Positions 3,749 through 51,696 of a stretch of 64,000 bases of DNA are shown here, one piece after another. The DNA comes from a virus (Duplodnaviria > Caudoviricetes): the IMG/VR virus record IMGVR_UViG_3300028591_000075, positions 32,001-96,000 of that record; one strand, given 5' to 3'. The position numbers and the translations under genes were made by a program. Every line of letters begins with the position of its first letter. Position 1 is the stretch's first letter. A model generated the notes under the pieces. The model was not told the origin of the DNA. It saw only the letters and a list, made by a program, of their open reading frames with translations, and did no database searches.

Positions 3749-6673
3749 CTAAACGAATGCGCGAACCTTCTTGGTTTCGTCGTATTCGAGTTCCTTCGGC
3801 CACCCGACAGCCTCGAAAAGACGGCCAAGTATCTGGGCGACAGAGACATGCCACTGTTCTTCCCAGTCAGCATGGAACAGTTGCAGGAGGCGTTCCGGGC
3901 ACTTCTCACCGCTATAACAGATGATTGAGACACCGTAGCGGTCATCAGCCTTCTTGATGAACTTCATCTTGTCACCGGCATAGATAGGCTCGTACGGCTC
4001 CTGGGCAAGAACGGGGTCATTCTCAATCAGGTAGTTCCACACGGAAGCGGCCCTGCGGCGCCAGTCGATATCCTTGATTTCGGATCGTGGCATCGTTATC
4101 ATCTTCAAGTACGGCAGGGGTTCTTCCTTCATACCGGAAGGACATGCGATGTATGAGTAGTTACCGGCATTGACGGCCTCGAAGAATTCCTTCTTCATGA
4201 CAAGCAGCCTACGACGCACCTCATCCCTATCCATGGTTTTCAGCATCAGCTTCACCATGTCGAGCATACGCTCCCTACTGAACAAGGTGGTAGAACTACG
4301 GACAATTTCAAGGCCAGTAATGGCAAAATGCGGTTCCAGTTCAAGGGTACCCGGCACCCACTTACCGTCCTCGTCCTTATGGCCAAGGTCGAGGTACACG
4401 ATATCTTCGTTGGATTCGGCTTCGCAGATGTACTTCTTTTTAGCGGTAACGATTGCCTTGTAAATACATTTTTCGCGTTTCAGGAACAGTTCGTTAGTGA
4501 GGAAGTTCCATTTCTTCGCATAGGCAAGCATGAACTCATCCAGCTTCTCTTCAAGCATGGCAGCGTCCATGATACGGCAGAAGTCCGTAAGGCGGAAACG
4601 GTTGTAGATGACACGGTAGCGCTTGCCCATGACGATGCCGTCATGGAACATAATCTGCACCTTCGTCAGGCCAGTCTTCTTGTCAACGGAACGGTTCTCC
4701 GGGTCATGCCACACATCATGCAGGTACTGGTTGCAAGCCGCATTGAAAATCTTCTTGGCTTCGAGAATGTGGTCGTTGTCGAAGCCCTGCCGGAAGATTT
4801 CCTTATGTTCATCGAAAACGATGACTTCCACACCGGTACCGGCCTTGGCACCGAATTCCTTGAAGATATCACCAATCTTGCAGTAGAAGGAGTCGGTATC
4901 GCCATGGGACATGCGACGGTAGAGCACCTGGCCATCCTCGTCCTTGGTAGTACCAAGGAACGACGGGTCAATCGTCGGCTTGTATCCGAACGCATCATAG
5001 AATCGCTTGTCATTGACAAGTTCCTCGTTGAGGTACTTAGCAAGTTCAGCAATAGTAAACTTAATGAGCCGCTGACCGTAACCAGTAATGGATGCAGCGT
5101 TATCGACATCATAGAACGGGAAGAAGTTAGAACCGAGAAGACCATACAGGGAGTTGCCGAGGACCTTATAGACCTTCTGCATCATGTCGTATATGTCCTT
5201 CATTTCCATGTCGCCGGCCTTTTCAGCGGCTTTCTTCTTGTTCTTCAACTTGGCACGGCCATCGAACAGCTTCCTGGTCACCTGCGGGACGATGCCTTCC
5301 TTGTCACGACGGAAGTACACCTTGTACTGACCGTTGTGGGTCCACGGGCTCTCGATGAGAAGGTCCCTCTCTTCCGGGGTAAGAACGTAGTCGATTGGCT
5401 TGATGACCTTCGTCTCTGGAGAGGTATTGAAAGTCATCATGATAGACGGGTACAGGGAACGGTAGTCATAGGAGACCAGGAACTCGTAGTAGCCGGGGAT
5501 CGAGTACACGAATGCACCCGGATATTCTTCCTTGTTCTTGGCCTGCATCGGAGGGAACACGAGATGCTGCTCGTGAAGCATGTTCATCACGAACCCGACC
5601 AGCATCTTCTTGGATTCAAACACGGAGGAGAACGGCACGCGGGCTTCCGAAGCAGCCATGACGGCAAGCTGGAACATGCGCACCTTCAATTCAATCTTTT
5701 TCAGCAGCCTAACGTCCTGGAAGTTATACAGGATGAACTCATCCCAGTAGTTCTTCCATGACTTGTAGCCATCGGGCAACGGGGCCTTGTGTTCGCCGAC
5801 AACGAGGCCGCCAATGTAGTCGAGTTTGTAGGACGGTTCTTCCGAGAACGTGTACTTGCGGTAGAGGGCAAGGAAGTCGATAACTTCCGTACCGGCAATC
5901 TGCAGGTTGCCCTCGCGGTCGAAGTAGGCCTTCTGGAACTGGCCGGGAAGTCTGGACATGAGCTTCAAGTCCACCTTCAACTTGGCGGCACGGTTCACCA
6001 TGTAGGTGGTATCGTAGGAGAAGTTCCAACCCGACAGGATATCGACCTGGTTCTTGCCAATTTCGGAGAACAGCTTTTCAAGGAGTTCCTTCTCGGTGTA
6101 GCAGAGAACATACTTGCCGTTCTCCTTCGCCATCTCTTCCTTGACATAATCGGAAACATCTCGTCCAAGACCGTATGTAACGTAGTTGTCGGTCTTCGAG
6201 AAATAAATAGTAACGCAGTTAATCGGGTACTCGGCACGGTGAGCCGCAGGGAAGCGACCCACCGTCTCCACTTCAATATCGAGGAAGCACAGGTTAATCT
6301 TCTTCATGTCCGGTTTCAACATACCGGACTTTGAGTAATGCTTCTGTAAGAAACGCGCCCTGGGGTCAATATCAATTTCGGAAAGGTGGTTGTTCGGACC
6401 CATGGTACGCTTGCGTATGTCCTGTTCCACCTTGGACTTACAAGTAACGGAGTACATCTCCCTGCCGTAGATGTCCTTCATGCCGCAGGGTATCGAATTG
6501 TACTCGCCTCGGTTAGGCGTATAGAATGTGTTGGTAATAACCTTGGTCTCCAACTTTCCGGTATCGTACCATAGGAAAAGTTGGTCAGTTTCCCGGTCAT
6601 GGTAAATCGCGGTCCACATCGGGTGGACTTCTTGGGAATCTACGACCTTGTTGTCTTCTAACGCTAATGCCAT
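3749..6673 (-). CDS. gp43: DNA polymerase family B (T4 gp43-like)
   Basis: Exonuclease motifs FLDIEV, SGWNFSYD, YNFQDV; polymerase motifs YDYRSLYPSIM, KVLGNSLYG, HGDTDS, KKKY. Confidence 0.97.
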   Translation of the reverse strand: MALALEDNKVVDSQEVHPMWTAIYHDRETDQLFLWYDTGKLETKVITNTFYTPNRGEYNSIPCGMKDIYGREMYSVTCKSKVEQDIRKRTMGPNNHLSEIDIDPRARFLQKHYSKSGMLKPDMKKINLCFLDIEVETVGRFPAAHRAEYPINCVTIYFSKTDNYVTYGLGRDVSDYVKEEMAKENGKYVLCYTEKELLEKLFSEIGKNQVDILSGWNFSYDTTYMVNRAAKLKVDLKLMSRLPGQFQKAYFDREGNLQIAGTEVIDFLALYRKYTFSEEPSYKLDYIGGLVVGEHKAPLPDGYKSWKNYWDEFILYNFQDVRLLKKIELKVRMFQLAVMAASEARVPFSSVFESKKMLVGFVMNMLHEQHLVFPPMQAKNKEEYPGAFVYSIPGYYEFLVSYDYRSLYPSIMMTFNTSPETKVIKPIDYVLTPEERDLLIESPWTHNGQYKVYFRRDKEGIVPQVTRKLFDGRAKLKNKKKAAEKAGDMEMKDIYDMMQKVYKVLGNSLYGLLGSNFFPFYDVDNAASITGYGQRLIKFTIAELAKYLNEELVNDKRFYDAFGYKPTIDPSFLGTTKDEDGQVLYRRMSHGDTDSFYCKIGDIFKEFGAKAGTGVEVIVFDEHKEIFRQGFDNDHILEAKKIFNAACNQYLHDVWHDPENRSVDKKTGLTKVQIMFHDGIVMGKRYRVIYNRFRLTDFCRIMDAAMLEEKLDEFMLAYAKKWNFLTNELFLKREKCIYKAIVTAKKKYICEAESNEDIVYLDLGHKDEDGKWVPGTLELEPHFAITGLEIVRSSTTLFSRERMLDMVKLMLKTMDRDEVRRRLLVMKKEFFEAVNAGNYSYIACPSGMKEEPLPYLKMITMPRSEIKDIDWRRRAASVWNYLIENDPVLAQEPYEPIYAGDKMKFIKKADDRYGVSIICYSGEKCPERLLQLFHADWEEQWHVSVAQILGRLFEAVGWPKELEYDETKKVRAFV

Positions 6674-8348: not shown

Positions 8349-9479
8349 TTAGTTCCCGAGGTAATAGACCTTCCTGGCAAACAACTGGTTGCTGAAACAC
8401 AGCATCAGCTTTCCATCCGGGCCAGTCTTCAACAGGAGCGACTTGCAGTTGGAATTGCGGATCATCATGGTAATGACATCCATTGGCAAGGTGATTTCCC
8501 TGTCCAGGTCAAGCATATGCACTTCCGCCATTGTCACCGTGGCGCCATACCGGCCATCCACATTGAATTCGATGGAGGCATGGGCCTCGTCCACCGGTGT
8601 AATCTTGACATTGGCAACAGGGTTCTTGTAGTTCACGCGGAAGATAGTGTCGATGGTCGCAATCATTGCAGCAGTGTCGAACTTCATGTAATCGGTAAAC
8701 CCTTCGGAAGACATGGCAGGGAACTCGGCTTTCTTGAAGGAATAGTCGATGCGCATGACCTCACCGGCAATGCGGATACGCTTGTTGGTATAGTCGATGT
8801 TGAGAGTGCAGTCCTGGGATATTTCAAGCATCGGTATGATACGGAAGATATCGCATGGAATTCTAAATGCAAAGTCCGGGAGGTTCTTGTCCACACCCAG
8901 GCCATTGGGTGTTTCAAGGGAGGCGACTATGGTCGCAAGTACAACGCGGTCATTTCCTGAACGATAGGACAGCAACCCTTCGTGACGATGAATTTCCATC
9001 CATTCGAAATCAAACGAGCTGTCAGTCACGATTGAGAAAGAACCCTGCTCAATCTTGATTGTTTCATCGATATGGTCGCCGAGATCCTTGTATTCAAAAG
9101 GTTCAACCGGTTCACAGAAGCATTCAAGCTCGAAACCCTCGATTTCTTCATTGAACGACGATGCCACATAGAGCCGACCACTGTCAACCCACAGAGTGAC
9201 ATTGTTCTCCTGGGACACTTCCCTACACAGCACACAGAAGTCGCGCAGGTTGACCCAGGCATCGCAGTCAAGCAGCTCGGACTTCAAGGTGGAGTCCGAG
9301 TTCACGTAGACACCGTGTTCGGTCTGGACATGGAGGATAACGATACCATCGGCATCCTTGTCGGTCCACACATGCGCACGCATGTTGTCATCCCTGGACG
9401 ATGAGTAGAGGAACGAAATTGCCGAACGGAACCTAGTTGCCGTATTGAACATTACGAGAGATGGAGTTTTTTCAGACAT
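8349..9479 (-). CDS. Divergent DNA polymerase III beta-clamp (DnaN)-like protein
   Basis: 376 aa matches DnaN size. FAFRIP, KKAEFPAM, FDTAAMIATIDTIFRV and ITLPMDVITMMIRNSNCKSLLLK align by eye with DnaN domains 2-3. Confidence 0.55.
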   Translation of the reverse strand: MSEKTPSLVMFNTATRFRSAISFLYSSSRDDNMRAHVWTDKDADGIVILHVQTEHGVYVNSDSTLKSELLDCDAWVNLRDFCVLCREVSQENNVTLWVDSGRLYVASSFNEEIEGFELECFCEPVEPFEYKDLGDHIDETIKIEQGSFSIVTDSSFDFEWMEIHRHEGLLSYRSGNDRVVLATIVASLETPNGLGVDKNLPDFAFRIPCDIFRIIPMLEISQDCTLNIDYTNKRIRIAGEVMRIDYSFKKAEFPAMSSEGFTDYMKFDTAAMIATIDTIFRVNYKNPVANVKITPVDEAHASIEFNVDGRYGATVTMAEVHMLDLDREITLPMDVITMMIRNSNCKSLLLKTGPDGKLMLCFSNQLFARKVYYLGN

Positions 9480-9578
9480 TACTTAACCTCATTCCGAAAA
9501 CTACATGGTATTGCCCATCCAAGGGGTTGCTAAGGATGTTGGAACGATATATAGTGGTCGTGACGCTACCTAGAGTAC

Positions 9579-9607
9579 AATATAGGACTTATTCATTGGC
9601 ATGTCAA
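9579..9607 (-). promoter_or_regulatory. Sigma70-type promoter TTGACA-17-TATATT
   Basis: Exact spacing; upstream of the DnaN-like gene. Confidence 0.75.
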
Positions 9608-9659
9608 GGCATTTTTTCATGGAACAACACTTTGGGTGGTCATAGCCAACTACATCAAA

Positions 9660-9681
9660 AAGGCGCCCCGGAGGGCGCCTT
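9660..9681 (-). terminator. Intrinsic terminator hairpin
   Basis: AAGGCGCCC-CGGA-GGGCGCCTT with an A-tract on the left. Confidence 0.75.
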
Positions 9682-9702
9682 GTATCTAGGAGGAAATATC
9701 GA

Positions 9703-11214
9703 TTAGATGTTTTCGAGCGCGGCTAGGTCGAAGTCCACGTTGTCGTTTCCTTCGTCACCTACGCCTTCCTTCATCTCGGTTCCAGGTTCACCAAACATGT
9801 CGTCAGCCATGGACATCATGTCACCGGTTCCACCGAGGCCGCCCTGCGGATCACCAATCTGGGCATTCGGAGACCAACCGACACCGACACCAGTCTGGTC
9901 ATCACCAGGCAACTGCATTGCGGCAGTCTGGGCATCCACGTCATTGATGGCCGTTCCATCGGCATTGTAGACTTCCGGGAACCATGTGCCGAGACGCTGG
10001 TCAAATGTCTTCGGGTCGATACCGTCTTCAAGGGCCTTGGCCATCTTAACAAGTCCGTCCTCGGAGAGAGGTTGAGAGCCAAGGGCCGCATACTTCTTGA
10101 ATTTGAGGAGCGTCGGAACAGCAACCTCGCGTGGCTGTGCGGTAGTGCCGGCCCAACCGTTGAAAATTTCATCGGCATCAGGCTGAACACCCGAGCTGTC
10201 ATCCTTCAATTCCTTGACGTAAGCATCGGCAATAATCTTGTTGAGCGTATCAACAGCCTTCTGGGAAAGACCGTTGTTACCCGGATCCGTCGGACCAGGA
10301 TCGCAGAACGCCGTAAATTCCTTGGTCTTGGGAGCACCTTCGGCAGTTCCAGCCGGATTGGCGTTCACGTCGCCAGCATCCTGCATCGGAGGAGGATTGC
10401 CCTCGGCGGGCTGTTCAGTTTGCTCGCCATCTTCGGCGGGTGCGGCGAAATCTTCGGCCCCGAAGTCACCTTCGCCTTCGAGAACAGCCTTGTTGCACAG
10501 GCCGAGAAGCGCTTGCAGCTGCCAGTCAACGGATTCATTCTTGACCAGGGCGCTCGGACCCATTTCGGCCACGTTCAGGTTGTCGAAATTCACGTCGTTG
10601 AAATTGTCGTTTCCGATGAATCCAGTCGCGGCACCGACACCGCTGGTCATCTGGTCAAAGTCGGATGCCGTGTCACCATTCTGCACCAAATCCATCGCCA
10701 TGCGCTTGATAACCAAGTCAAGACGACCCTTCAACTCATCGGAATCGGCGGGGAAGTTGCGCTGTGTGGTATTTCCGGTATTTTCGTCATCGAGGATGAT
10801 GGTGACTTCGCCCTCATCATTCGGGGCCATCATCTGCATACGGATGTCGTGGCCAAGGCACTGAATCTTACCGGACGTGACTTGCTGGCTCATGACTGGC
10901 AAATCCAGCTTGAACGTCACGTTGTTGGCCTCGTTCAATGCGCGGAGCCTGGATTCGGTCATTACCTTGATGCCGAGATCCTTCAAGTTCAAGTAGTTCT
11001 TGTTCAGGGTAAGCGGGTTGTTGTCGTACTTGCGATGGTCCCACTTGGCCTTGGTCTGGTCACCGACCGGCTTCGGGGTACCCTTGGTAATGGTATCGAT
11101 TAGTTCCTTTTTGGCCGGAACGACCGGACCACTCTGGGTCTTGACATAGCCCAGCTTTCCCAACTTTTCCAGGAGTTCCTGACGAGATATAGTAATCGGC
11201 ACGGTTGACCTCAA
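9703..11214 (-). CDS. Hypothetical late protein, acidic
   Basis: 503-aa ORF, TATAAACT at 11234-11241, terminator-like hairpin downstream; start codon uncertain. Confidence 0.75.
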   Translation of the reverse strand: MRSTVPITISRQELLEKLGKLGYVKTQSGPVVPAKKELIDTITKGTPKPVGDQTKAKWDHRKYDNNPLTLNKNYLNLKDLGIKVMTESRLRALNEANNVTFKLDLPVMSQQVTSGKIQCLGHDIRMQMMAPNDEGEVTIILDDENTGNTTQRNFPADSDELKGRLDLVIKRMAMDLVQNGDTASDFDQMTSGVGAATGFIGNDNFNDVNFDNLNVAEMGPSALVKNESVDWQLQALLGLCNKAVLEGEGDFGAEDFAAPAEDGEQTEQPAEGNPPPMQDAGDVNANPAGTAEGAPKTKEFTAFCDPGPTDPGNNGLSQKAVDTLNKIIADAYVKELKDDSSGVQPDADEIFNGWAGTTAQPREVAVPTLLKFKKYAALGSQPLSEDGLVKMAKALEDGIDPKTFDQRLGTWFPEVYNADGTAINDVDAQTAAMQLPGDDQTGVGVGWSPNAQIGDPQGGLGGTGDMMSMADDMFGEPGTEMKEGVGDEGNDNVDFDLAALENI

Positions 11215-11254
11215 TAAAAACTTCTTTGGGAGAAGTTTATAAGGTCAGCCGCAA

Positions 11255-11632
11255 CTATTCACGCTCCCGCACCAGCCGTTCGAGCCATTCTACATCACCG
11301 GCGTCAGCCGTATGGTAGCTCGTAGTGTAGGTATAAAACAGATTGCCTACTTTGCTAGAGCGTGTTCTGACAGTCACTAGCATGTATTTATTCGGCGTGT
11401 CATAATGAGAGAATACCTTGACGGATATAAATTCATCATCCACCCAGCAAGTGTCATCATGATCCCACACAGGCATGTACAAAACAGCATCCTTGACTGT
11501 ATCAATATCAGTCTTGATATGTTCAGACCTCAACGGACGACCCATCTTGTTGCACTTGCTGAAATAATCAATTACCCTGTCCTTGAACATCGGGTCAATA
11601 GCAGGCCATTTCGAAGTTTGTTTCATTTTCAT
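11255..11632 (-). CDS. Hypothetical protein
   Basis: 125 aa, GGAG RBS, directly after the clamp gene. Confidence 0.7.
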   Translation of the reverse strand: MKMKQTSKWPAIDPMFKDRVIDYFSKCNKMGRPLRSEHIKTDIDTVKDAVLYMPVWDHDDTCWVDDEFISVKVFSHYDTPNKYMLVTVRTRSSKVGNLFYTYTTSYHTADAGDVEWLERLVRERE

Positions 11633-11638
11633 GTCTCC

Positions 11639-12502
11639 TTAATCAACAAGCTCTTCCGCATTTTCCTCGGCACCGGAACATTCCACGATCATCGCGTAGA
11701 TGCCGATGGGATACATCTGGTCATTGCCCTGCAAGTTGGCGAACGCCTTCAATGCGATGGAATCGTAGTCGGCAGCGACATAGCGGATTTCCATGTCATA
11801 TTCCTCGCAGCCGAGGCCTTTCAGGATTGTAAAGATGCTGGTGGGTATTTTACGGTAACGCTGCTTGGAATCCTTGCCGTATGCGGTGGCGATTGCCTTG
11901 CTGTCGCCCGGAAGGGTCATGGTGTAATCAACCTTGCTGGTAATCTGCTGACCGACACGGCCCTTGAAGTAGAACTTGACTTCACCCTTGTCGGTGACAT
12001 TCACGCTAAAGAACTGACAGCCGGGAACGAGTTTCAGCTTCTGGACATACTTTTCCAAGTCCTTCTTGTTCAGCTTGATGGTGGCCAGGAGGCTCATCGG
12101 GTCGGCTTCACGGGAACTCGGCACCTTGGTATCGTCCTCGTTAAAGAAGGAAGGCTCGGCAGTGAGACTACGGGCCGTTTCGGTACCGTTGCCGAACCTG
12201 ATAAATTCGTACACATGGCCGGCAATCGTTTCTTCGTTATCGACAACGATTGTACCGGTTTCGGGATATCCGATAAGTTCAGCAAATCGGATAAATTCGA
12301 TGAAGGAAGAGGAGTTGACTTCCAGGCCGTCGAACGAAAAGTCGGCGGGGCCCGCACTGATATGGATGAAGCTGTTCTCGTTATGGATGTTCAGGCATGA
12401 CTTATCGCCGTCATGGAAGAACTTGACAGTCTTTGCCTTAGTCACCATGCAGACCTGCTTGATGACATTGAAGAACGGCCTACTGAACCTTATTTCTTGC
12501 AT
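11639..12502 (-). CDS. gp45: Sliding clamp, T4 gp45-like
   Basis: 287 aa. N-terminus IRFSRPFFNVIKQV resembles the gp45 N-terminus; two-domain alternating alpha/beta pattern; replication context. Confidence 0.65.
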   Translation of the reverse strand: MQEIRFSRPFFNVIKQVCMVTKAKTVKFFHDGDKSCLNIHNENSFIHISAGPADFSFDGLEVNSSSFIEFIRFAELIGYPETGTIVVDNEETIAGHVYEFIRFGNGTETARSLTAEPSFFNEDDTKVPSSREADPMSLLATIKLNKKDLEKYVQKLKLVPGCQFFSVNVTDKGEVKFYFKGRVGQQITSKVDYTMTLPGDSKAIATAYGKDSKQRYRKIPTSIFTILKGLGCEEYDMEIRYVAADYDSIALKAFANLQGNDQMYPIGIYAMIVECSGAEENAEELVD

Positions 12503-14526
12503 ATCTCTTTCCTGCGGTTAAACGCTATGGCCTGCTCGGTGGCCGACACATAGTTGATTATCCTGTCCTCGATTTCATGCCATTTCGGGCTATTGAACGG
12601 GATGACGTATCCGGCAGCACACGAGGAACTGACCGGTACCTGCATCATCCCGAGCCGATATCTCCGACAAATTGCGGAAACAATCGGACCCATAGCGCCT
12701 CGGCATTCACCCAGGACATTAAAATAGTGAATTTCTTTGAGTTTGTCAAGCATTTCGCCGCGAACGGCGACAAATGGACCATCAAGAACCTCGACTTGAT
12801 GGCATCCGTTCACCTCAGCGGACCCCAGTACCATCTGGTTGGATGCCGGAGACAGGTTGTATGTCTGGTAATACCCGTATGTACGGGTGCACTGTGACCA
12901 GGTGCCATCGAACTGGGTATATTCATACCCGAACGGAGCGACGGCCATGATTTCCTTCGGGACACTGCGTAAGGTTTCGTACAAGTTGATATCGTTGATT
13001 ATCGACGTACCCGGCACAATGATGATCCATTCAGGCAGCATCTTTACCTTCGGTACAATGGAATTCTCGATACCACGCAGCACCAGCCGGGTCGATGAAT
13101 TTGGTGTCACGCGCCGTCTCAGTCGCAAATCCTGGTCGCGCACGAACACTGCAAGGTCATATTTCGTCAGTGACCTGTCCTTGTAAATGTTGCACCCGGA
13201 ATGGGTATAAACCAGCGAAATAATCTCACGGTTCTCGGAATACTTCAATACATTGTCGCGACGAAGGAGCAATTCCCGCGTTGGTTCAAACCCAAGTTCG
13301 ATGCGCATGGCTTCGCGCTCACGCTTCTTGTCATTTTTCGACTTGATGATGTCGCGGGCATGCTGTTCCTTTGCAAATTCCCGTTCGGAATACGCATTGT
13401 CAAAGGCATTCTCTATGATGTCAACAACGCTGCGGGTAATGACGGTCTTCGGTTTCGGCGTGGTGAAGCGCTTCGGCTCAGGATTCTTGATGGTCTTGCC
13501 CATGCGGATTACCGGACAATACTCGACACCTGACGCGATGATTTCCTCGACCGCCTTCTTCTCCCATCCGCATATCTTGTTGAAGGCTTCCTTCTTTTCC
13601 ACGCGGTCGCCATACTTGTCCACCAGAGGGCACTTACCACGTATAAAAGTATCGATCCATGCCTGGCTCTTCCCAAATATGAACTCGATTTGTCTGGCAT
13701 TGTAGTAAGGCTGCTTTCCGCTTCCGTAGCAGCGACCGCGCCAGCACTTGCTAATCAGGGAATCCAGCTTTGCCTTGCTTATTCCCCACTTCACCTTCCC
13801 TTCCGGGGTTGTATACTGTTCGCACTTGACCAGTTTCCCACGGACGGCATTACGGGCCTCGGGAACTGCAGCACAGTAGATTTCGGCAATACTGCGCGGC
13901 ATGTATTCCGGGATTGGGTTACGTCTGAACTTGTGCCCATTCGCTACCCTTTCCTGTGCGAATTTCAGCAGGGTTTCATGACTAACCTTGCGCACCTCGT
14001 ACTTCTTACGCGGTTCGACTTCAATCCGCTTGGCCTTGATCATGAACTTCATGTTGCTAATCTTGAAGCCGAACAGGAGCGCAGCATCCGTAAAGAGCAA
14101 CGGTTCGCGCACGTATTTCAACAGATATAGACGGTCAAAGGTGCGGAGGAATTCGTCGGCATCCTCGCGATATACGCGCTTCTTCCCGTTGGCATTGAGG
14201 TGAACCTTTATATCCCCCGCCCGCACATGCTTCATGTACTTGGCGGGACTATGGATATTGAGGTAGACCATGGCCTCCTCCTGGGTCATCTCGAACAATG
14301 GATGATCATTGGAGGGAGGCATCAACCTGTACTTCATGACGCGGTGCTTGATTACCGATGTCTTGTAAATCTTGTGCCCCTTCTCATCAAGGCGGAACGG
14401 GACCATTTCGCATAGCTTGATTTTCCGGACGTACTCCACGTCCTTCTGGATGTAGTCGGCCACCCACTTCTCACTCACGAACTCCGGTTCGGGCTCGTTC
14501 ATTTTCTTGATCAGTCGGTCCAGCAT
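12490..14526 (-). CDS. Fusion of about 5 excisionase/MerR-like HTH repeats with a C-terminal GT2-like domain
   Basis: HTH units such as MTQEEAMVYLNI...VRAGDIK...KKRVYREDADEFL; C-terminal VEVLDGPFVAVR is typical of Glyco_tranf_2_5-like domains. Confidence 0.6.
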   Translation of the reverse strand: MLDRLIKKMNEPEPEFVSEKWVADYIQKDVEYVRKIKLCEMVPFRLDEKGHKIYKTSVIKHRVMKYRLMPPSNDHPLFEMTQEEAMVYLNIHSPAKYMKHVRAGDIKVHLNANGKKRVYREDADEFLRTFDRLYLLKYVREPLLFTDAALLFGFKISNMKFMIKAKRIEVEPRKKYEVRKVSHETLLKFAQERVANGHKFRRNPIPEYMPRSIAEIYCAAVPEARNAVRGKLVKCEQYTTPEGKVKWGISKAKLDSLISKCWRGRCYGSGKQPYYNARQIEFIFGKSQAWIDTFIRGKCPLVDKYGDRVEKKEAFNKICGWEKKAVEEIIASGVEYCPVIRMGKTIKNPEPKRFTTPKPKTVITRSVVDIIENAFDNAYSEREFAKEQHARDIIKSKNDKKREREAMRIELGFEPTRELLLRRDNVLKYSENREIISLVYTHSGCNIYKDRSLTKYDLAVFVRDQDLRLRRRVTPNSSTRLVLRGIENSIVPKVKMLPEWIIIVPGTSIINDINLYETLRSVPKEIMAVAPFGYEYTQFDGTWSQCTRTYGYYQTYNLSPASNQMVLGSAEVNGCHQVEVLDGPFVAVRGEMLDKLKEIHYFNVLGECRGAMGPIVSAICRRYRLGMMQVPVSSSCAAGYVIPFNSPKWHEIEDRIINYVSATEQAIAFNRRKEICKK

Positions 14527-14707: not shown

Positions 14708-15868
14708 CTAAAAGTAAGTTTCCGGTGTCATCGCGGCCTCACGTCTTGCGTTGGCCTCGCGACGGGTCTTCATCGTGGCCTTGAATTTCTCCTTGGCCAC
14801 ATTTCCATATTTCAGCATGAACAGAATATCGGAACCACCGGGTTGACGGATACGCGCATCTATGTACTCCTGTCGCACATACCCGTCTTCCCCGAGGGGC
14901 AGGTTGCATCCATTGAGGACTTCGCCGTTGATGTCCTTCTCCGTGATGCCTTCCCAATCAAACCACTTGTACCCATCGTGACAGGTAGCCGTGCGACCGT
15001 CCCTACCAGCTTCGTCATTATCCCAGATGAACACGCAGTTTTCCTTGTGCTGGGCAATCTTGGGGTTATCCATCAGAATCTCGTGGAGATGCTGAACACC
15101 ACCGATGCCTATCGCATTGGGGATAAACGTAGAGTCGATGGTGCCTTCCAGAACATAGAAGGGCTGGTCAAATCGGATAAAGTCGATGTTGTACGCTTCC
15201 CTGCGAACGTTTTTGAGGTTCAGGTAGCGCATCGGGTTGTTTCGGTCGATTGCACGGGCATCGAACTGTGTCCACTTGCCACCGAAATGATAGAACGGCA
15301 TGATGATACGGTTCTTGTACTCATTGCCAACCGGCCTTCCGGTTTCCGGGTTGATTATCAGGTTTCCGTTGGCATACCTGTGCAGGAACTGATTTCCTTC
15401 AAGACACACGAACCACTTCTCGAAAACCTCCGGACGGATCTTTCTCCTCTTGCACTCAGCCAGACCAGCTCGGGCCAATGGATGGTTTGATGTAATTGGT
15501 ATCAATTCACCATCAACGAAAGGAGAATCCGGCGGAAGCGCTGGACGGTCATCCTTGACTTCCTCCTTGCGCTTCCTCTGGCCCGGCATCGCACCAAACG
15601 CGGAATAGATGAGCTTGGAGTAAGTCTCCGGTTCGGTCTGTTTCAAATACGACGCAAACGGCATGGAACAAGGGCACCTGAAGCAGATGTACTTCCAGGT
15701 ATCCTTGTAAATCCACGCCTTCCTCTTATTCGGAAAGCGCATATCGCCGCAGACCGGACACACAAACTCATAATGGTCAGAACGATCTTTCAGGTTCTGG
15801 GTACCATACAGTTCATGAATGACCTGGTCATAGACACTTGCGGGTATTTCGGAATAATCGATAGCCAT
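14708..15868 (-). CDS. gp61: DNA primase, T4 gp61-like
   Basis: Zn finger CPVCGD...CFRC; TOPRIM motifs VLEGTIDS and WDNDEAG. Confidence 0.93.
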   Translation of the reverse strand: MAIDYSEIPASVYDQVIHELYGTQNLKDRSDHYEFVCPVCGDMRFPNKRKAWIYKDTWKYICFRCPCSMPFASYLKQTEPETYSKLIYSAFGAMPGQRKRKEEVKDDRPALPPDSPFVDGELIPITSNHPLARAGLAECKRRKIRPEVFEKWFVCLEGNQFLHRYANGNLIINPETGRPVGNEYKNRIIMPFYHFGGKWTQFDARAIDRNNPMRYLNLKNVRREAYNIDFIRFDQPFYVLEGTIDSTFIPNAIGIGGVQHLHEILMDNPKIAQHKENCVFIWDNDEAGRDGRTATCHDGYKWFDWEGITEKDINGEVLNGCNLPLGEDGYVRQEYIDARIRQPGGSDILFMLKYGNVAKEKFKATMKTRREANARREAAMTPETYF

Positions 15869-15930: not shown

Positions 15931-17454
15931 CTAGAACGGGAGGTCGCCGTCGTCATCCACCTGGATTGAGGTTCCAGCCGGAGTTCCTCCTACCCCCGGT
16001 GCACCAGCGAACTGGTTAGGCTGCGGGGTCGGTGCTGCAGGAGGTACATACTGCTGAGTCGGCTGTGCAGCAGGTGCCGCAAACTGCGGAGCGGCCTGTT
16101 GCGGTGCCGGGGTACCGAAGTTGGGCTGAGGCGCTGCCGGGGTAGCAAATGCGCTCTGCTGAACCGGAGCCGCGCCAGGGACGGCACCCGGAGTAGCAAA
16201 TGCACTCTGCGGAGCCGGGGCTGCACCAGGGACGGCACCTGGAGTGGCGAATGCGCTCTGCTGGGCAGGAGCTGCGCCCGGCGTTACATAAGCGCTCTGC
16301 TGCGGCTGAGGCTGGGCATAGTTAGGTGCTGCCGGGTTGTTGAAGAATGCACCGGCGTTACCGACGGTGGTCTTCGGCTGAGGAGGAACGTAGGCGCTCG
16401 GAGTAGAGGCCGGCATCGCGCCACCCTGGCCAGGTTGGGCATACTGCTGCTGACCGTACTGGGCCGGCTGTTGATAGGACGGATAGCCGTTTGCCGCGAT
16501 GTTGTTATTGTTATCAGCGGCCATGGCGGGAGCGCCATCGTAGGCAGCATAGAAGCTACGGGTGATACCTTCCAATTCATCGACGCTCTTCGGCTGAAGT
16601 TCGTACTTGGAGAGGTCATGGCACTGGTTAAGAATCTGCATGATGCCTTCGTCATTCTGGGCAAGCGGAGTTGCCATCGGTTCGAATTCGGAAGCATCCC
16701 ACACGGCTGCACCCTTATGGGTACCCCATGCCTTGGTGGTGTCCCAGGTGCCCTTCAAGTGGAAGATTGCGCCGGAAAGAACATGCCAAGGAATGCCGAC
16801 ATACTTGGCTGTACTGGTGTACTGCTGCTTGGCCTGGCCATTCTTGTTGACGTTGCGTTCAGGCAACGCGGCCATGACCTTGTCCCACTGCTTGGTCTTG
16901 GCGTGCCAAATCTTAATCTGGCCGTTGTTTTCCGGGTGAACGAAGTCATTGAGGATGAGGACGTTCACGAAGATATCGTCAACGGACAGGTTTCCGGAAA
17001 TACCGGAATCCTTAGCCTGCTGCTCTCCGTAAGTGTTCTTGATTTTGTAGTAACGGTCCCATGTTTCCTTGCAGAGCGGGCAATAGGACTTGCCGTACTT
17101 TGCGTTCGGATCGGGAATGTTTCCGCGACAGATGACCGGGCCTTCGCCCCAACGCTGGCCATCGCGCTTTTTGAGATAATGCTTTCTGCAATTTACGTGG
17201 GGCCAGAGGTTGCCCTGCACGCCCGCGAGTCCTCTCGGGAGGATGCGGATGATGGCTTCGACGCTTTCGTGCTGTGCATCGCACTGGAGCTGCCATTCGT
17301 TCGGGTCTGCCGGGGCGGCTTGTCCACCTGCCGGGGTTTCCGGGACGCCCATGTTTGCGAACATGGAGTTAAACTGTGTAGCGGCACCTGGTTGGGCGAA
17401 CTGAGGCTGTCCACCAATGCCAAACTGATTCTGCTGAGGGATATTCTGATCCAT
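15931..17454 (-). CDS. gp32: Single-stranded DNA-binding protein, T4 gp32-like, with long P/Q/A/G linker and DDDGDLPF tail
   Basis: AIIRILP, C...CPLC zinc ligands, VNVLILNDFVHPENNGQIKIW, WDASEF. Confidence 0.88.
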   Translation of the reverse strand: MDQNIPQQNQFGIGGQPQFAQPGAATQFNSMFANMGVPETPAGGQAAPADPNEWQLQCDAQHESVEAIIRILPRGLAGVQGNLWPHVNCRKHYLKKRDGQRWGEGPVICRGNIPDPNAKYGKSYCPLCKETWDRYYKIKNTYGEQQAKDSGISGNLSVDDIFVNVLILNDFVHPENNGQIKIWHAKTKQWDKVMAALPERNVNKNGQAKQQYTSTAKYVGIPWHVLSGAIFHLKGTWDTTKAWGTHKGAAVWDASEFEPMATPLAQNDEGIMQILNQCHDLSKYELQPKSVDELEGITRSFYAAYDGAPAMAADNNNNIAANGYPSYQQPAQYGQQQYAQPGQGGAMPASTPSAYVPPQPKTTVGNAGAFFNNPAAPNYAQPQPQQSAYVTPGAAPAQQSAFATPGAVPGAAPAPQSAFATPGAVPGAAPVQQSAFATPAAPQPNFGTPAPQQAAPQFAAPAAQPTQQYVPPAAPTPQPNQFAGAPGVGGTPAGTSIQVDDDGDLPF

Positions 17455-22707: not shown

Positions 22708-22736
22708 ATATCCACACTATCAACAACTTATCAACA
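22708..22736 (-). repeat. Three DnaA-box-like 9-mers upstream of the uvsX promoter
   Basis: ATATCCACA 22708, CTATCAACA 22717, TTATCAACA 22728. Confidence 0.7.
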
Positions 22737-38131: not shown

Positions 38132-40627
38132 ATGAAACCCATAAAAGATGCGACGCCGTTCGAACTCCTTGATGAGAGATTAGACAATAATCCGTACTTT
38201 AAGCGCGAATATCCCATGGTTCGCGGTGGGTCACCTCTTTGCTGGGCTTTCTATGTACAGATGGTTCCGACCCTGTGTGAACAGGAAGTCATAAACAATT
38301 TCTTCCAGAACCTGTCACATCCGGAAGACCCACTCTTCCAGCACCTGAATGACCTCGTACTGGAACCCCATAAGCATAAGGATCTTGCGGTCTATCTGTT
38401 AAAGACGTATCAGCTTCTTGACGCAAGCATGTGCAGTGATATTGAGGAATTTGCCAATGCATTCACCAACGCGCTCGAAACCATATATGGAGAACGGGAT
38501 GACTTCGCAATGCCAACCGATAACCCGATTTGGGAAGCTACTGTATCCAATGTCCCATCGGCACCACGTTCAATGGCAATTCTAGGTCTTTTTATCGATG
38601 ATTTTTCCCCGGATAATCTCGAAGCCACATTGCATAACCAGATACCATCTCAACGAATGTACAGCAATCCTTCCACATCGGAACGTGTGGTAGAAGTTGA
38701 GAAGCAGAGGATGTATGCAGCTCGCGTGGCCGCGCTTACACAGATTTTTAAGCTCTGCGATACAATTTTCAACGAAGAAAAACATGAGCTGGATCCGCAG
38801 ACGCTGTCCATTATTGTAGAAGACATCAACAATAAGTACATGAATACACCGGAACTTCCGGATTGGGCCATCGACACTCCCGCATCGAAACCCGATATAC
38901 CGGACACAACAGCAATCGAACCTCCTGTCCCGAAAGTGGAGCCGAAGGTGGAACCGAATCCTGTTGTACCCCCTGCACCGAAGGTTGAACCTAAACCTGC
39001 TGCCCTCCCGGCACCGAAGGTGGAGCCGAATCCTGTTGTACCCCCTGCACCGAAGGTTGAACCTAAACCTGCTGCCCTCCCGGCACCGAAGGTGGAGCCG
39101 AAACCCGTTGTACCACCCGCGTCAAAGGTTGAACCTAAACCTGCTGCCCTCCCGGCACCAAAGGTGGAGCCGAAACCTGTTGTGCCCCCTGCACCGAAGG
39201 TGGAACCAAAGCCTGCTGCCCTCCCGGCACCAAAGGTTGAACCAAAACCTGCTGCACTGCCAGCTCCAAAGGTTGAACCAAAACCAGCTGTACCCCCTGC
39301 ACCAAAGGTGGAGCCGAAGCCTGCTGTACCCCCTGCGCCAAAGGTGGAGCCGAAACCTGCTGTACCTCCTGCACCAAAGGTGGAGCCGAAACCGGTCGTC
39401 CCCACAGGTGATGTCGTAGTGTCAGAAGAACCGGCACCCGCTGCTCCGGCTGCTCCTGCCGCTACTCCGGCTCCGGCTGCCCCTGCTGCTGGTGGTGATA
39501 GCGATTTGGGTGGCATTGTTATTGATGAGCCTGAACCGGAAGAAATTCCACCCGAAGAACCCGCTGCTGATGAAGACTCTAGTAGCTTGGACGGCAATAT
39601 GGACGAAGGCGCCTTGCCACCGGGTACCCCGGCATCGCCCGCCCGTCGCATCAACGTCCCACAGCGTGTACTCATGGAAATTTACAACCATGCAAGTTCC
39701 AGGGACCAGATTACCGACGCGCTCCGCCATGTCGAACAAGATATCATGGATAACACCCCGAACGCACAGTTCCTTGTGCGCTTTGTTCCCGGTGTTACCC
39801 AGGAAATCATCAAGGACATCTTGGTCAACCGTACCGCCAGTGGGCGGTATATCAACCGTTCTACCGGTCGTACCGGTGACGCCATCCCGCATACGAACCT
39901 GACCGGCGGTACCACCTACACCGCCGGCACCAGGACCAGGGCTCTCGGTCCGGTCGAGGTTCCGCCTGGATTTGCCCAGGAAAATTCCTCTGTCCTGTGG
40001 GATGAACCCGTCATCACGACTATGGGTTATCCATTCATCAACTTCGGTGCCCCCGAGATTTACACCATCCTGAAAGACAAGGATGAAAAGCGCGTAAAGC
40101 AGGCATACAAGAAGTTGAAGAAACAGTTGAAGAAGGTTGGCCTTTCGGACCCAATCAAGGTATTGAAGGACTTCAAGAACTCCGTCGGTGTCCCCTGTGC
40201 CATCAACCGCTTGACAATCGATTCCAACGACCTCCTTGAAACCGGCAACGCGAACGTCCTCGCGACAGTCTACCCGCGTGCCACTTCCACGATGCAGGCC
40301 GCTATCGGAACCATACCCCTTACCAGGGACTTCATCGTGGAAATGTACAAGGTACTTTCCCCGACCAAGGGCGCCAAGATTTACATGGACACCCTGGGCA
40401 TGACCGAGGATGAGTATGCGGATACGCTGAATACGGAAGGCCGTCCGCCTATCTACATATTCATCCCGAAGGAAAAGCTCCGGTTCAAGAAGGCCCCGGC
40501 TGGCTTTATCGCCCGTCTGTTCACCAGCAACAAGAAGCCTACCCTGGTCGAGGCCAAAATTGGCACCCATTCGGGCGGCTTCGTGATGCCGTTCAAGACG
40601 ACAAGGATACTTTTCACCGAAGTATAG
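38132..40627 (+). CDS. Late protein with Pro-rich tandem repeats; C-terminal domain paralogous to 45097-47079
   Basis: TATAAACT 38103-38110; PAPKVEPKP repeats. Confidence 0.85.
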   Translation: MKPIKDATPFELLDERLDNNPYFKREYPMVRGGSPLCWAFYVQMVPTLCEQEVINNFFQNLSHPEDPLFQHLNDLVLEPHKHKDLAVYLLKTYQLLDASMCSDIEEFANAFTNALETIYGERDDFAMPTDNPIWEATVSNVPSAPRSMAILGLFIDDFSPDNLEATLHNQIPSQRMYSNPSTSERVVEVEKQRMYAARVAALTQIFKLCDTIFNEEKHELDPQTLSIIVEDINNKYMNTPELPDWAIDTPASKPDIPDTTAIEPPVPKVEPKVEPNPVVPPAPKVEPKPAALPAPKVEPNPVVPPAPKVEPKPAALPAPKVEPKPVVPPASKVEPKPAALPAPKVEPKPVVPPAPKVEPKPAALPAPKVEPKPAALPAPKVEPKPAVPPAPKVEPKPAVPPAPKVEPKPAVPPAPKVEPKPVVPTGDVVVSEEPAPAAPAAPAATPAPAAPAAGGDSDLGGIVIDEPEPEEIPPEEPAADEDSSSLDGNMDEGALPPGTPASPARRINVPQRVLMEIYNHASSRDQITDALRHVEQDIMDNTPNAQFLVRFVPGVTQEIIKDILVNRTASGRYINRSTGRTGDAIPHTNLTGGTTYTAGTRTRALGPVEVPPGFAQENSSVLWDEPVITTMGYPFINFGAPEIYTILKDKDEKRVKQAYKKLKKQLKKVGLSDPIKVLKDFKNSVGVPCAINRLTIDSNDLLETGNANVLATVYPRATSTMQAAIGTIPLTRDFIVEMYKVLSPTKGAKIYMDTLGMTEDEYADTLNTEGRPPIYIFIPKEKLRFKKAPAGFIARLFTSNKKPTLVEAKIGTHSGGFVMPFKTTRILFTEV
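38930..39402 (+). repeat. Coding tandem repeat, 36-bp/12-aa unit PAPKVEP(K/N)P(AAL/VVP/AVP), about 12 copies
   Basis: Visible directly in the DNA and the translation. Confidence 0.95.
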
Positions 40628-44110: not shown

Positions 44111-45097
44111 TTATTCATTCTCTTCCGGATTGAAGATCGGATCATTTACCGCGTCTTCGAGACCATACATCAGGTTGTCATTATTGCTCTTCACATTCAG
44201 CCCAGGCATTTCAGGCAGTTCACCATTTTCCTCGGGCTTCTCGTCATTCTCCTCGGGAACGGGATTTGCATCGGGCGACGGTTCGGTAGGAACTTCCTCA
44301 CCATGTTCAATCACGCCCGCGAGCGCATCGAGCGACTCCTGGGCTTCCGGTATCTTGATTGGGTTCAATCCTTCCATCTTCGGCAACGCATCCTTGTCGC
44401 TGATGACAGTCTTACCCTCTTCCGGTATGACCTCGGGACGTTCACCCTTCGGCGCTTCCGCCTGTTTCGGGAACATTTCAGGCGTCTCGCCCTTCTGTTC
44501 TTCCGGCTTCTTCTTTTTCGCCGAGAGTGGACCGAGGTCCACCTTCTCCTGTTCAGGCTTCGGGAACCTGGCGGTCCTGGCATCCTTCATGATTGGTCCG
44601 GCATTGGAAAGCATACCCTTGAGCGCGGCAGCGAGATGCTTGCATATCGTATGCTCGCGTTCCGGATCGCGAACGTCAGGCGGGATGTCGGAACCGGCAT
44701 CACCATGCCCTTCCTCGAAACCGTCATGCAGGTGCGACATGTTGTATGCCGCGCCGGAATAACGGAAATCCTTGCAGGGGCAGAAGCACCTGACATCGGC
44801 TTCCTTCAATGCGTTCACCCTGGACCGGAGGTCGCGGACGTTGTTGGCTACAGCGAACAGCGACATGCCCTTCGGCTTGATGGACACGTAGCACTCGTAC
44901 ACGGTACCGGGGTTCGACTGGGACGGGATGTGCCACTTGATGACTGCATCACCGGAAAGGTTCTTCTCTATCCCGACATAGTGATATTGCAGTTTCTTGG
45001 CACGCTCGACACGACCGGAATCCAGCGGAGCCGTGAATTCCTGCATCGTGCCTTCAAGGAAGGTACGCAGCCTTTTCTGCAACATCGACTTTAACAT
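44111..45097 (-). CDS. SWIM zinc-finger protein
   Basis: VRCFCPCKDFRY...ICKHLAAAL (CxC...CxH). Confidence 0.8.
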   Translation of the reverse strand: MLKSMLQKRLRTFLEGTMQEFTAPLDSGRVERAKKLQYHYVGIEKNLSGDAVIKWHIPSQSNPGTVYECYVSIKPKGMSLFAVANNVRDLRSRVNALKEADVRCFCPCKDFRYSGAAYNMSHLHDGFEEGHGDAGSDIPPDVRDPEREHTICKHLAAALKGMLSNAGPIMKDARTARFPKPEQEKVDLGPLSAKKKKPEEQKGETPEMFPKQAEAPKGERPEVIPEEGKTVISDKDALPKMEGLNPIKIPEAQESLDALAGVIEHGEEVPTEPSPDANPVPEENDEKPEENGELPEMPGLNVKSNNDNLMYGLEDAVNDPIFNPEENE

Positions 45098-47079: not shown

Positions 47080-47129
47080 TGGAAAATCCCCGGAAAACCT
47101 TTTTCCGGAGTTTATAGGAAAACCGCGTC

Positions 47130-48686
47130 TCACGAAACCGCGTTAGCGTATTCGTCGGCTATCCTGCGGTCGGCCTCATCACCCCATCCGCAATAGTACC
47201 CGACCTCGTAGAACGATGCCATCTCGGCATCGACCATGGCGTCATCGGGTTCAAGTATCGCCCTCTCCTCGACTGTCGTAGTCGGGATGCCGAACCGGTC
47301 GAGTTCCCGGTCAAGGATGGCCTTGGCGGCATCGCCGAACTCGCGGGGAACGATGACCTCGTCATGCACAGTGCAGTAAGGGCACCCTATCTCGGCCTTG
47401 ATTGCCGGGATGACCACGTCGAACACGAAGGAACTCTCCATCCTCTGCATCTCGTATGCGAGTGCGCGGTAGTTCGACACCTTCATGCTGTCGATGAGGA
47501 TGAGCAGTTTCGGCCAATGTTCCTCCCACACCCTGCGACATGCATGCCAAGCCGGGTCGCACCCGTCATCGAGCCGGACACCGGCGAACAGCGTGGCCAG
47601 GAAGGCCTTCTTCGCCCTCTCGCGATCAACCACCTCATCCAGGTCAAAATCCTGTGACATCTCGGAAGCGAAGAACTCGTAAAGTTCGCGCCGTTCCAGC
47701 TTCCCGCGAAAATCGGCAAACTCCCGGTTCAACTGTTCCCGGCCAATCCAGTCCGGTGCGCCGGGATCCATCACGATGAACGATTCCCCGTTGCGCCCGA
47801 GCATGGCCTTGTCGCCACGGAGGCACGCGCCGATGATGTAGCACAGGAACGCGCCCTGGCTGCTCTTGATGTCAACCTCGGCAACCGGTCCGCCGTCACA
47901 TGTCAGGGCGCCCTCCCTGACCTCGCGCTTTACCTGGGTAATGTTGGTGTGTACGCGCCCGTAGTCGTCGCGCACGACATACAGAGAAGTGTCACTCTCC
48001 TCCGCATCGTTGAACCGGTCAACCTTCCTCAACTCACGGTCCAACTTGCGCCCCTCAATCCCGGCAGTCACCAGGGCGCGACGGGCCTTGGCCCGGTCGA
48101 TGTGGAAGTGTTTCAGGTTCTCGTGCGCATCGCGGACAACCGGGTCCATGAGCTGGATGCGCTTGCGGTCCTCGGCACATTTCTGCAGCCTTTTCAGGAG
48201 AATTTTCGACCGTAGTTTCACGGCCATCATGCGTCCCGCGTGGAAGTCGCCCTTGCCATAGAGGTGCGCGACATCCCTCGCGTAGCAGTATTCCTTCAAC
48301 ATCCACCCGTAGCCCTCGCCGAACCACACGGCCTTGCTCATGCCGGGTGTGCTCCCGGTAGCCTTGCAGTAGGAGGAACCGCGCATGAGGACACCCCAGT
48401 TCTTCAAGTTCTCGAACACCTCGATGTACTTGTGGCCCATCGCGGTATCCATGATTTTCGAGTAGAGGCGACAGAACCATTCGCGGCACTTCGGGGGCTT
48501 CCTGGTGGCCAGGTACTCCCTGCGGTAGGACTCGACGAGCCCCTTCGTTACCCAGTGGATGATTAGCCAGTAGTAGTCGTGGTCCCTCTCGGGGACATTG
48601 TGCTCTTTCAGCAGTGCGCGAATGGGTTTCCTGAACTTGTCCAGGACCCGTATCTCGTATTCAAACTTTGTCCGCGTTTCCGGCAT
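47130..48686 (-). CDS. Stand-alone PolA/T7-RNAP-superfamily nucleotidyltransferase (palm/fingers only, no exonuclease domains)
   Basis: DDYGRVHTNITQ, motif A EVDIKSSQ, motif B RERAKKAFLATLFA, LAYEMQRMES, motif C TVHDEVIV. Confidence 0.75.
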   Translation of the reverse strand: MPETRTKFEYEIRVLDKFRKPIRALLKEHNVPERDHDYYWLIIHWVTKGLVESYRREYLATRKPPKCREWFCRLYSKIMDTAMGHKYIEVFENLKNWGVLMRGSSYCKATGSTPGMSKAVWFGEGYGWMLKEYCYARDVAHLYGKGDFHAGRMMAVKLRSKILLKRLQKCAEDRKRIQLMDPVVRDAHENLKHFHIDRAKARRALVTAGIEGRKLDRELRKVDRFNDAEESDTSLYVVRDDYGRVHTNITQVKREVREGALTCDGGPVAEVDIKSSQGAFLCYIIGACLRGDKAMLGRNGESFIVMDPGAPDWIGREQLNREFADFRGKLERRELYEFFASEMSQDFDLDEVVDRERAKKAFLATLFAGVRLDDGCDPAWHACRRVWEEHWPKLLILIDSMKVSNYRALAYEMQRMESSFVFDVVIPAIKAEIGCPYCTVHDEVIVPREFGDAAKAILDRELDRFGIPTTTVEERAILEPDDAMVDAEMASFYEVGYYCGWGDEADRRIADEYANAVS

Positions 48687-51638: not shown

Positions 51639-51645
51639 ATAATTT

Positions 51646-51696
51646 TGTTGATATATTGTTGATAAGTTGTGAATAAGTTGTTGGGATTGTTGATAG
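51646..51696 (+). repeat. Array of five DnaA-box-like 9-mers
   Basis: TGTTGATAT 51646, TGTTGATAA 51657, TGTGAATAA 51668, TGTTGGGAT 51679, TGTTGATAG 51688. Confidence 0.75.

Follow-up and report, generated by a model that had tools for sequence, protein, structure and literature searches.

The stretch of DNA analyzed here (hereafter the window) comprises 64,000 nucleotides of a virus of the class Caudoviricetes (Duplodnaviria), corresponding to positions 32,001 to 96,000 of the IMG/VR record IMGVR_UViG_3300028591_000075, which is linear, 253,312 bp long, and ~67% complete according to CheckV. It carries a gene (hereafter the fusion gene) whose product joins an N-terminal series of units of winged helix-turn-helix (wHTH) type to a C-terminal domain predicted to have the GT-A glycosyltransferase fold. 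As for its function, a regulatory or architectural factor bound to DNA seems more likely from our results than an enzyme that modifies DNA with sugars. The sequence-only reading had placed the gene between primase and the sliding clamp and had quoted several motifs from it; the open reading frame (ORF) was found exactly at 12490-14526 and contains every quoted motif. Its parts are as follows.

12490..14526 (-): whole gene, 678 aa plus stop, ATG start
14329..14487 (-): unit 1 (residues 14-66), probable Xis/MerR-type winged helix
14113..14301 (-): unit 2 (residues 76-138), HTH_17/excisionase-type winged helix
13933..14112 (-): unit 3 (residues 139-198), HTH_17/MerR/BldC-type winged helix
13723..13917 (-): unit 4 (residues 204-268), winged helix homologous to units 2 and 3
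13525..13719 (-): unit 5 (residues 270-334), divergent, with similar predicted topology and an inserted helix
13420..13524 (-): basic linker (residues 335-369), disordered at 347-368 (predicted local distance difference test, pLDDT, < 50)
13447-13485 (-): conserved linker motif NPEPKRFTTPKPK, candidate short linear interaction motif
13291..13419 (-): long charged helix (residues 370-412), strongly conserved
12493..13260 (-): predicted GT-A domain (residues 423-678), majastridin/PF13712-like
13003..13014 (-): P505-G506-T507-S508, equivalent of the Asp-x-Asp (DxD) site, at the end of β4
12991..12993 (-): D512, the domain's sole invariant acidic residue, four residues past the DxD-equivalent
12760..12762 (-): R589, invariant Arg in the conserved LDGPFVAVRG strand

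The AlphaFold2 model of the whole protein, built from a 26-sequence alignment (mean pLDDT 86), was parsed into five N-terminal units, a linker, and a C-terminal domain. The predicted units begin at residues 14, 76, 142, 206, and 273, with a period of 62-67 aa, and all five are predicted to follow the order strand-helix-helix-β-hairpin-helix (pLDDT 85-95). The Pfam family HTH_17 (PF12728, curated cut-off 27 bits) matched 16 of the 26 family members at unit 2 or unit 3, and three of them exceeded the gathering score (36.6 bits in P0024 and 31.6 bits in P0036, both at unit 3, and 27.8 bits in P0031 at unit 2). Additionally, MerR_1 (cut-off 21.6 bits) matched unit 3 of P0043 at 25 bits, and sub-threshold NCBIfam matches to excisionase families were located at units 3 and 4 (TIGR01764 at unit 4 in P0043). 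The isolated unit 2 of the window protein scored below the HTH_17 cut-off (20.6 bits, E 5e-4), and the best score for the BldC family NF033787 (cut-off 77 bits) was 20.2 bits, at unit 3 of one homolog, the protein encoded in the window being a multi-domain protein of 678 aa. When the sub-alignments of the units were compared by hhalign, units 2, 3, and 4 matched one another at 92-95% (E 2e-8 to 5e-7), with 92-94% for unit 2 against units 3 and 4 and 95% (E 1.8e-8) for unit 3 against unit 4. By these profile comparisons, units 2-4 are demonstrably excisionase/MerR-type winged helices.

Unit 1 is a probable winged helix of Xis/MerR type: it matched unit 4 weakly by hhalign (63%, E 7e-5), and a Pfam search with isolated unit 1 sequences from five diverse members yielded one weak MerR_1 match. 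Unit 5 was not detectably homologous to units 1-4 by hhalign, and the isolated unit from five diverse members gave no Pfam match; the only match recorded for it was a weak one to DUF7229. Since there was no sequence signal beyond this match, unit 5 was counted as a winged helix on its predicted topology. The earlier proposal of five tandem excisionase-like HTH domains is therefore firm by profile for units 2, 3, and 4, probable for unit 1, and for unit 5 a matter of predicted structure. Every unit is basic, with a net charge of +2 to +6. By language-model features, the N-terminal part of the protein was nearest to HTH_17/MerR clusters, and because some of these clusters are at least 400 aa in length, multi-HTH_17 proteins probably occur elsewhere too, which we note as a lead only.

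The charged linker that had been expected after the units was recovered in the AlphaFold model as a disordered segment (residues 347-368) followed by a helix (residues 370-410). The linker has a net charge of +5, and its motif PEPKRFTTPKP is kept among homologs, as is the N-terminus MLDRLI of the protein.

Modeling of the C-terminal domain alone with 31 sequences gave a pLDDT of 91.6 and a predicted template modeling score (pTM) of 0.90, and four independent searches agreed on a GT-A-like C-terminus, as the sequence-only reading had suggested. Foldseek against the PDB retrieved GT-A proteins only (B4GALNT1, majastridin, SpsA, mimivirus R699, vaccinia H3, and hyaluronan synthases). VIA, run exhaustively over 48,161 chains, ranked majastridin (2nxv) first with a Z of 15.8 over 206 of 249 residues (root-mean-square deviation 4.3 Å, 7% identity), followed by a runner-up at Z 12.4. 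In the same search, 66 chains had a Z of at least 8, and all 50 matches listed were GT-A glycosyltransferases or related nucleotidyltransferases, including many GT2, GT27, and GT64 enzymes at Z 10-12.4 over ~200 residues. A shape search of the ESM Atlas returned the family itself and then PF13712 clusters, mostly viral (template modeling score, TM, 0.64-0.66), and the top match in BFVD, where every match was likewise to a GT-A protein, was a 226-aa phage protein named 'Glycosyltransferase like family' (E 6e-9, TM 0.66 by target). These results indicate that the C-terminal domain, as modeled, adopts a GT-A fold. Sequence-profile searches of the PDB, with either the entire family or just the C-terminal domain as query, gave nothing meaningful. 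One of the 26 members (P0043) matched PF13712 at profile positions 83-149 (E 2e-4, 21.6 bits), below the gathering score of 27 bits; the window protein had no match to this family, and its own genome had none at E up to 1. Because the single match is below the cut-off, though the structural neighbors are PF13712 clusters, the family is a distant PF13712 relative at best.

The lack of a clear DxD motif, first noticed in the window protein, extends to the whole family. In the model, β4 comprises W500-P505, and the DxD of GT-A enzymes comes after β4. No D or E occurs at positions 505-508 in the 31 family sequences, where the consensus is P-G-T-S and the residues seen are P/S/A/H/Q/G at 505, G/S/A/N/T/K at 506, T/S/M/V/L/N at 507, and S/T/A/N at 508, giving a family pattern of [P/A/S]-x-[T/S]-[S/T]. 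The site was placed by predicted secondary structure together with an hhalign comparison with a canonical GT2 profile, the latter derived from a GT2 gene of this phage, in which the best local alignment set P505-G506-T507 on the invariant D-G-D; since its score was not significant (E 0.23), this placement indicates consistency, not proof.

D512 and R589 are the only invariant polar residues of the domain; the other invariant positions are W, G, or P, and Y534, W543, and S617 are near-invariant. The mean top-residue frequency was lowest in the donor-nucleotide half (0.35 at residues 434-497) and highest at residues 498-590 (0.58-0.59). In typical active GT-A families the pattern is the reverse, and the distribution seen here therefore points to a repurposed or non-canonical module. 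Most probably the domain is no Leloir transferase of the classical metal/DxD type, and judged by the alignment, the conservation pattern would agree better with a regulator that senses a ligand or is otherwise non-catalytic than with an enzyme of DNA hypermodification.

A word-seeded search of 5.8 billion proteins yielded 27 relatives, and phmmer, applied exhaustively to 1.84 billion cluster representatives, yielded only 31 clusters, nearly all of 660-780 aa and sharing one architecture from end to end, the remainder being fragments. Contigs carrying family members reach 453 kb. A profile search with the C-terminal domain for stand-alone forms or other fusions retrieved only same-family fragments on short contigs, and therefore the combination of an HTH array with a GT-A domain is the only detectable form. 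The gene had no match in 50,697 deposited phage records (tblastn and megablast), the window protein matched nothing above threshold in PHROGs, PADLOC, or NCBIfam, and the combination was not found in the Pfam architectures seen, deposited phages, or the literature searched; nor did the literature on majastridin, PF13712 in phages, DUF7229, and tandem HTH_17 contain anything informative. The architecture, which had been called unfamiliar, is the only one detected in its family, and it is a new domain architecture made from known folds.

In the window, the fusion gene shares its strand with a T4-like module for replication and recombination, as listed below.

3749-6673: family-B DNA polymerase (PolB), co-directional with the fusion gene
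from PolB to the fusion gene, in order: DnaN-like 376-aa ORF, acidic 503-aa ORF, 125-aa ORF, 287-aa clamp-like ORF, fusion gene
beyond the fusion gene, in order: 55-aa ORF, primase (14708-15868), gp32-type single-stranded DNA-binding protein (SSB), RuvC-like resolvase, DnaB-type helicase, UvsX

A scan of IMG/VR identified 30 loci with the fusion gene on contigs of up to 355 kb, and their gene order was read by tblastn with the proteins of the window. The order was the same in every locus: g190, g210, gp32, primase, fusion gene, clamp-like gene, (g125), acidic protein, and DnaN-like gene. Primase lay directly before the fusion gene in all 29 loci that have sequence upstream, and in all 29 that have sequence downstream the clamp-like gene came next. 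This synteny holds down to 23% identity of the fusion protein, with start/stop overlaps; in the window, the final 13 nt of the gene run into the ATG (12502-12500) of the 287-aa clamp-like gene. Loci from other collections showed the same order, with the single exception of one very remote homolog (21% identity), where an acidic-protein homolog directly follows the gene. Across the IMG/VR loci, the fusion protein was the most diverged (23-33% identity, against 28-42% for the clamp-like protein and 43-56% for primase). The gene is single-copy across the 253-kb record; a second 678-aa ORF in the window (45097-47133) was considered and rejected as a paralog, being unrelated. These results indicate that the fusion gene is a core, single-copy replication-module gene in one clade of T4-like jumbo phages known only from uncultivated members.

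The place first described for the gene, between primase and a sliding clamp, is strictly conserved, but the clamp identity of the 287-aa neighbor is only a lead, its sole basis being the similarity of its ESM Atlas features to PCNA/gp45 clusters (0.92-0.93). The genes of the downstream block had no Pfam or PHROG match. A complex prediction for residues 335-678 of the fusion protein with this neighbor scored 0.00, which weighs neither for nor against binding. PolB and UvsX share no more than ~30% identity with any deposited phage, and their relatives belong to T4-like cyanophages, pelagiphages, Vibrio and Stenotrophomonas jumbo phages, and uncultured phages of 640-735 kb.

Several other features of the module and the window were recorded. 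The genes for the 287-aa clamp-like, 125-aa, acidic 503-aa, and 376-aa DnaN-like proteins form a strictly conserved block at 8349-12502 (-). The gp32 gene (15931-17454) contains a 51-bp tandem repeat (2.7 copies, 16137-16275) encoding the Q/P/A-rich C-terminal tail of the gp32-type SSB. A match to AAA (PF00004) at 61042-61356 (+), inside a 368-aa open frame, marks a candidate clamp-loader large subunit. An 831-aa ORF with no family matches (38132-40627, +) has a 36/72-bp tandem repeat of 12.5 copies at 38945-39393, encoding a Pro/Ala/Lys/Val-rich stretch. In the relative L007, an IS200/IS605-type element (4144-5919; TnpB/Cas12f-like OrfB plus Y1 transposase) sits within the replication module, between a RuvC-like gene and the g190 homolog.

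Taken together, the interpretation that we favor, and to which we give an even chance of being correct, is that the fusion protein is a covalent, Xis/BldC-like DNA-coating array with a repurposed or non-canonical GT-A module, serving as an architectural or regulatory replication factor and not as a hypermodification enzyme. BldC binds head-to-tail on direct repeats with one helical turn between protected tracts (PMC5859096), and RdfS forms wHTH filaments (PMC11963761). By analogy with such monomers, which line direct repeats head-to-tail, the tandem wHTH chain would be a pre-assembled filament of Xis/BldC/RdfS type, coating ~50-55 bp (about five helical turns) on one face of the DNA and probably bending it. 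The flexible basic linker, with PEPKRFTTPKP, and the conserved helix would anchor the GT-A module, which might act as an effector that binds a ligand (possibly uridine diphosphate, UDP, or a nucleoside diphosphate (NDP)-sugar) or contacts a protein, and less likely as a non-canonical transferase. A ligand- or partner-binding effector is the more probable because conservation is lowest in the donor half and the polar residues include no invariant ones besides D512 and R589. The protein would act in replication or in replication-coupled transcription.

Comparison with known systems shows both the precedent for this arrangement and its differences. The lambda Xis, Streptomyces BldC, and RdfS proteins share the domain type, and their head-to-tail, DNA-distorting oligomers are what a covalent array would imitate; however, they are monomers of 55-90 aa that oligomerize cooperatively, whereas the fusion protein carries up to five diverged copies in one polypeptide, is fused to an enzyme-like domain, and is encoded in the replication operon of a lytic phage and not beside an integrase. 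Majastridin (2nxv/2qgi), the best structural match of the C-terminal domain, is a small, stand-alone orphan GT-A protein from the atp operon of Rhodobacter blasticus, with no assigned function and crystallized with UDP, but at 7% identity it has no sequence-level match to the domain, and it has no DNA-binding domains. The PF13712 (Glyco_tranf_2_5) phage proteins include the nearest non-self shape clusters and the top BFVD match, but they stand alone or are fused to other GT domains, never to HTH arrays. Vaccinia H3 (PDB 5ej0; Z 8.5 to the domain) is a precedent from a virus for the GT-A fold outside an enzymatic role, since its entry title describes the glycosyltransferase fold and the protein is known for another function, although it is a membrane protein of a eukaryotic virus and has no sequence or context relation to the fusion protein.

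Several points weigh against the favored interpretation. Metal-independent GT-A enzymes without a DxD exist, such as the GT14 enzyme C2GnT, and the missing DxD is therefore no proof of inactivity. A non-canonical type of active site could be built from the invariant D512 and R589, and the strong conservation of residues 498-590 could mark the acceptor site of a real enzyme. Majastridin, the closest structure, has a UDP complex (PDB 2qgi title), and donor binding may therefore persist in the domain. Since the phage encodes three other GT2 genes, a glycosylation pathway using the fusion protein is possible. The record is incomplete, at 67%, and the TET search was without a positive control. Finally, DNA binding by the array is deduced from its fold and family, together with its net positive charge.

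Beyond this interpretation, we consider it possible, and propose only tentatively, that the protein represents an undescribed class of replisome-module protein in giant phages, in which a covalent, Xis-like, DNA-wrapping filament would deliver a repurposed, DxD-less GT-A fold to DNA; this fold would serve as a sensor that links the pool of UDP-sugars or nucleotides in the host to replication or transcription of the phage, or as a new metal-independent transferase whose substrates are DNA or DNA-bound proteins.

The next alternative is an active, DxD-independent glycosyltransferase that sits on DNA and modifies a protein or small molecule as acceptor, such as a protein of the replisome, the nucleoid, or RNA polymerase. 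It would account for the conservation maximum on the acceptor side (residues 498-590), as well as for the residues that are invariant (D512, R589) or nearly so (Y534, W543, and S617); the conserved linear motif in the disordered linker could recruit a partner, and the gene shares an operon with primase and the clamp-like gene. However, the domain has no nameable catalytic motif, most of its invariant positions are Gly, Pro, or Trp, which are structural, and precedent for such an enzyme was not found in the literature, so that we regard this alternative as improbable.

An active DNA-tethered glycosyltransferase, held by the wHTH array and glycosylating phage DNA during or just after replication, was the function first suggested for the gene. 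In its favor are the GT-A fold, whose nearest structure binds UDP (2qgi title), the fused DNA-binding domains and conserved place inside a replication operon, the presence of other GT genes in the genome, and the existence of phage GT-A DNA glycosyltransferases (bioRxiv 10.1101/2023.12.21.572611). The characterized members of the latter keep an R...DDD...EDY/F signature and adjoin genes for a ThyS-type hydroxymethylase or for a C5-methyltransferase (C5-MT) plus 5mYOX/TET (bioRxiv 10.1101/2023.12.21.572611), and arabinosyl-5-hydroxycytosine pathways likewise need a ThyS homolog (PMC13326640). In the family alignment there is no DDD or EDY/F block. The 253-kb record (67% complete) had no match to PF00303 (ThyS), PF12851 (TET/JBP), or PF00145 (C5-MT), and because it is incomplete, five larger relatives bearing the fusion gene were searched as well. 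No ThyS-family gene was found in the 355-kb (93% complete) and 348-kb (91%) relatives, which are two of the three relatives at least 90% complete, nor in two others; the fifth (G004, a relative of L029, 260 kb) has a full-length ThyS-family match (C1:34356-35162, 277-aa open frame, 418 bits to PF00303). A search for TET/JBP in the relatives gave no matches, but the controls gave none either.

The likeness to phage DNA glycosyltransferases (T4 alpha/beta-GT, JGT-like enzymes, and those of RB69/DLP3) lies in being phage-encoded and, for some, in the GT-A fold, with action on DNA being a property of theirs; unlike the fusion protein, none has been described with an HTH array. The T4 alpha- and beta-GT enzymes have the GT-B fold. 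The motif and the ThyS or C5-MT plus TET neighbors belong to JGT-like enzymes, and the fusion protein has neither the motifs nor the companion genes, whereas the RB69/DLP3 arabinosyltransferases resemble GTs of the sucrose-phosphate synthase/BshA type and accompany a ThyS homolog (PMC13326640).

Three canonical GT2 genes are present elsewhere in the phage (C1:167968-168264, 194100-194639, and 118757-119086; L004-L006). One of them, encoding a 316-aa protein with an invariant DGD, has more than 170 close homologs on contigs of jumbo-phage size (up to 471 kb).

DNA glycosylation by the fusion protein is therefore poorly supported, since the near-complete relatives of 348-355 kb are without a ThyS-type hydroxymethylase and the family shows none of the motifs found in known phage DNA GT-A enzymes. 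With no DxD in any of the 31 members, a poorly conserved donor half, characterized routes that need a precursor enzyme of the kind not found in the record (no ThyS, TET, or C5-MT) or, for ThyS, in two relatives 91-93% complete (bioRxiv 10.1101/2023.12.21.572611, PMC13326640), and a five-domain array that suggests stable site binding and not scanning, we consider a hypermodification enzyme quite unlikely.

A further question is whether the array has specific sites in the genome. The sequence TGTKGATA is enriched in the window (13 occurrences vs 3.5 expected), and boxes in phased arrays occur at the following places.

51634-51701 (+): TGTTGATAA/TGTGGATAA box array, five boxes at 51645-51701
22708-22736 (-): TGTTGATAA/TGTGGATAA box array, three to four boxes
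59567-59596 (-): TGTTGATAA/TGTGGATAA box array, in the window
C1:166614-166642: TGTTGATAA/TGTGGATAA box array, in the genome

Phased arrays thus occur at 4 places in the genome, vs ~0.1 in shuffles. TRF identified the array at 51645-51701, with ~five copies of TTGTTGATAAG, as the sole array of 11-bp period in the 253-kb genome; its neighbors are a UvsW-like helicase on one side and an exonuclease operon on the other. A shorter array of the same geometry lies upstream of uvsX and is kept in the relative L007. Both of these window arrays stop ~17 bp upstream of a TTGACA -35 box, at promoters of the replication and recombination operons. Arrays are kept in relatives (L007, L039-L044), with 2 to ~7 boxes each, and the box is nearly identical in relatives whose fusion protein is 27% identical, although the recognition-helix residues of the units are not conserved across the family. 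TGTGGATAA is the reverse complement of the DnaA box TTATCCACA, and the 9-mers with 2-bp gaps resemble the DnaA arrays of oriC. Because the box is kept at such protein identity, box number varies, the recognition helices are unconserved, and the box matches that of DnaA, host DnaA is the simpler reader, and DnaA or another conserved factor likely binds the arrays. The least probable of the readings is consequently that the fusion protein reads these 11-bp-phased TGTTGATAA arrays specifically, one wHTH per box, as an activator or origin-binding protein for the replication and recombination operons, even though five units face five repeats in the only TRF array of this period, the arrays exceed the shuffled expectation and end near TTGACA boxes, the uvsX array is kept in L007, and BldC offers the precedent of one monomer per helical turn (PMC5859096).

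The significance of the gene depends on which parts of the favored interpretation hold. Should its product be purely architectural and the enzyme domain dead, the gain would be a modest one in annotation. If the wHTH chain mimics an Xis/BldC filament, the protein would provide a simple, one-polypeptide system for reading and bending of DNA by filaments, and a GT-A module that proves to be a sensor or an enzyme independent of DxD would widen the known roles of GT-A folds on DNA. Because the gene is as fixed in the operon as the primase and clamp-like genes, this clade of phages probably depends on a replication-associated function that is not predicted by T4 biology.

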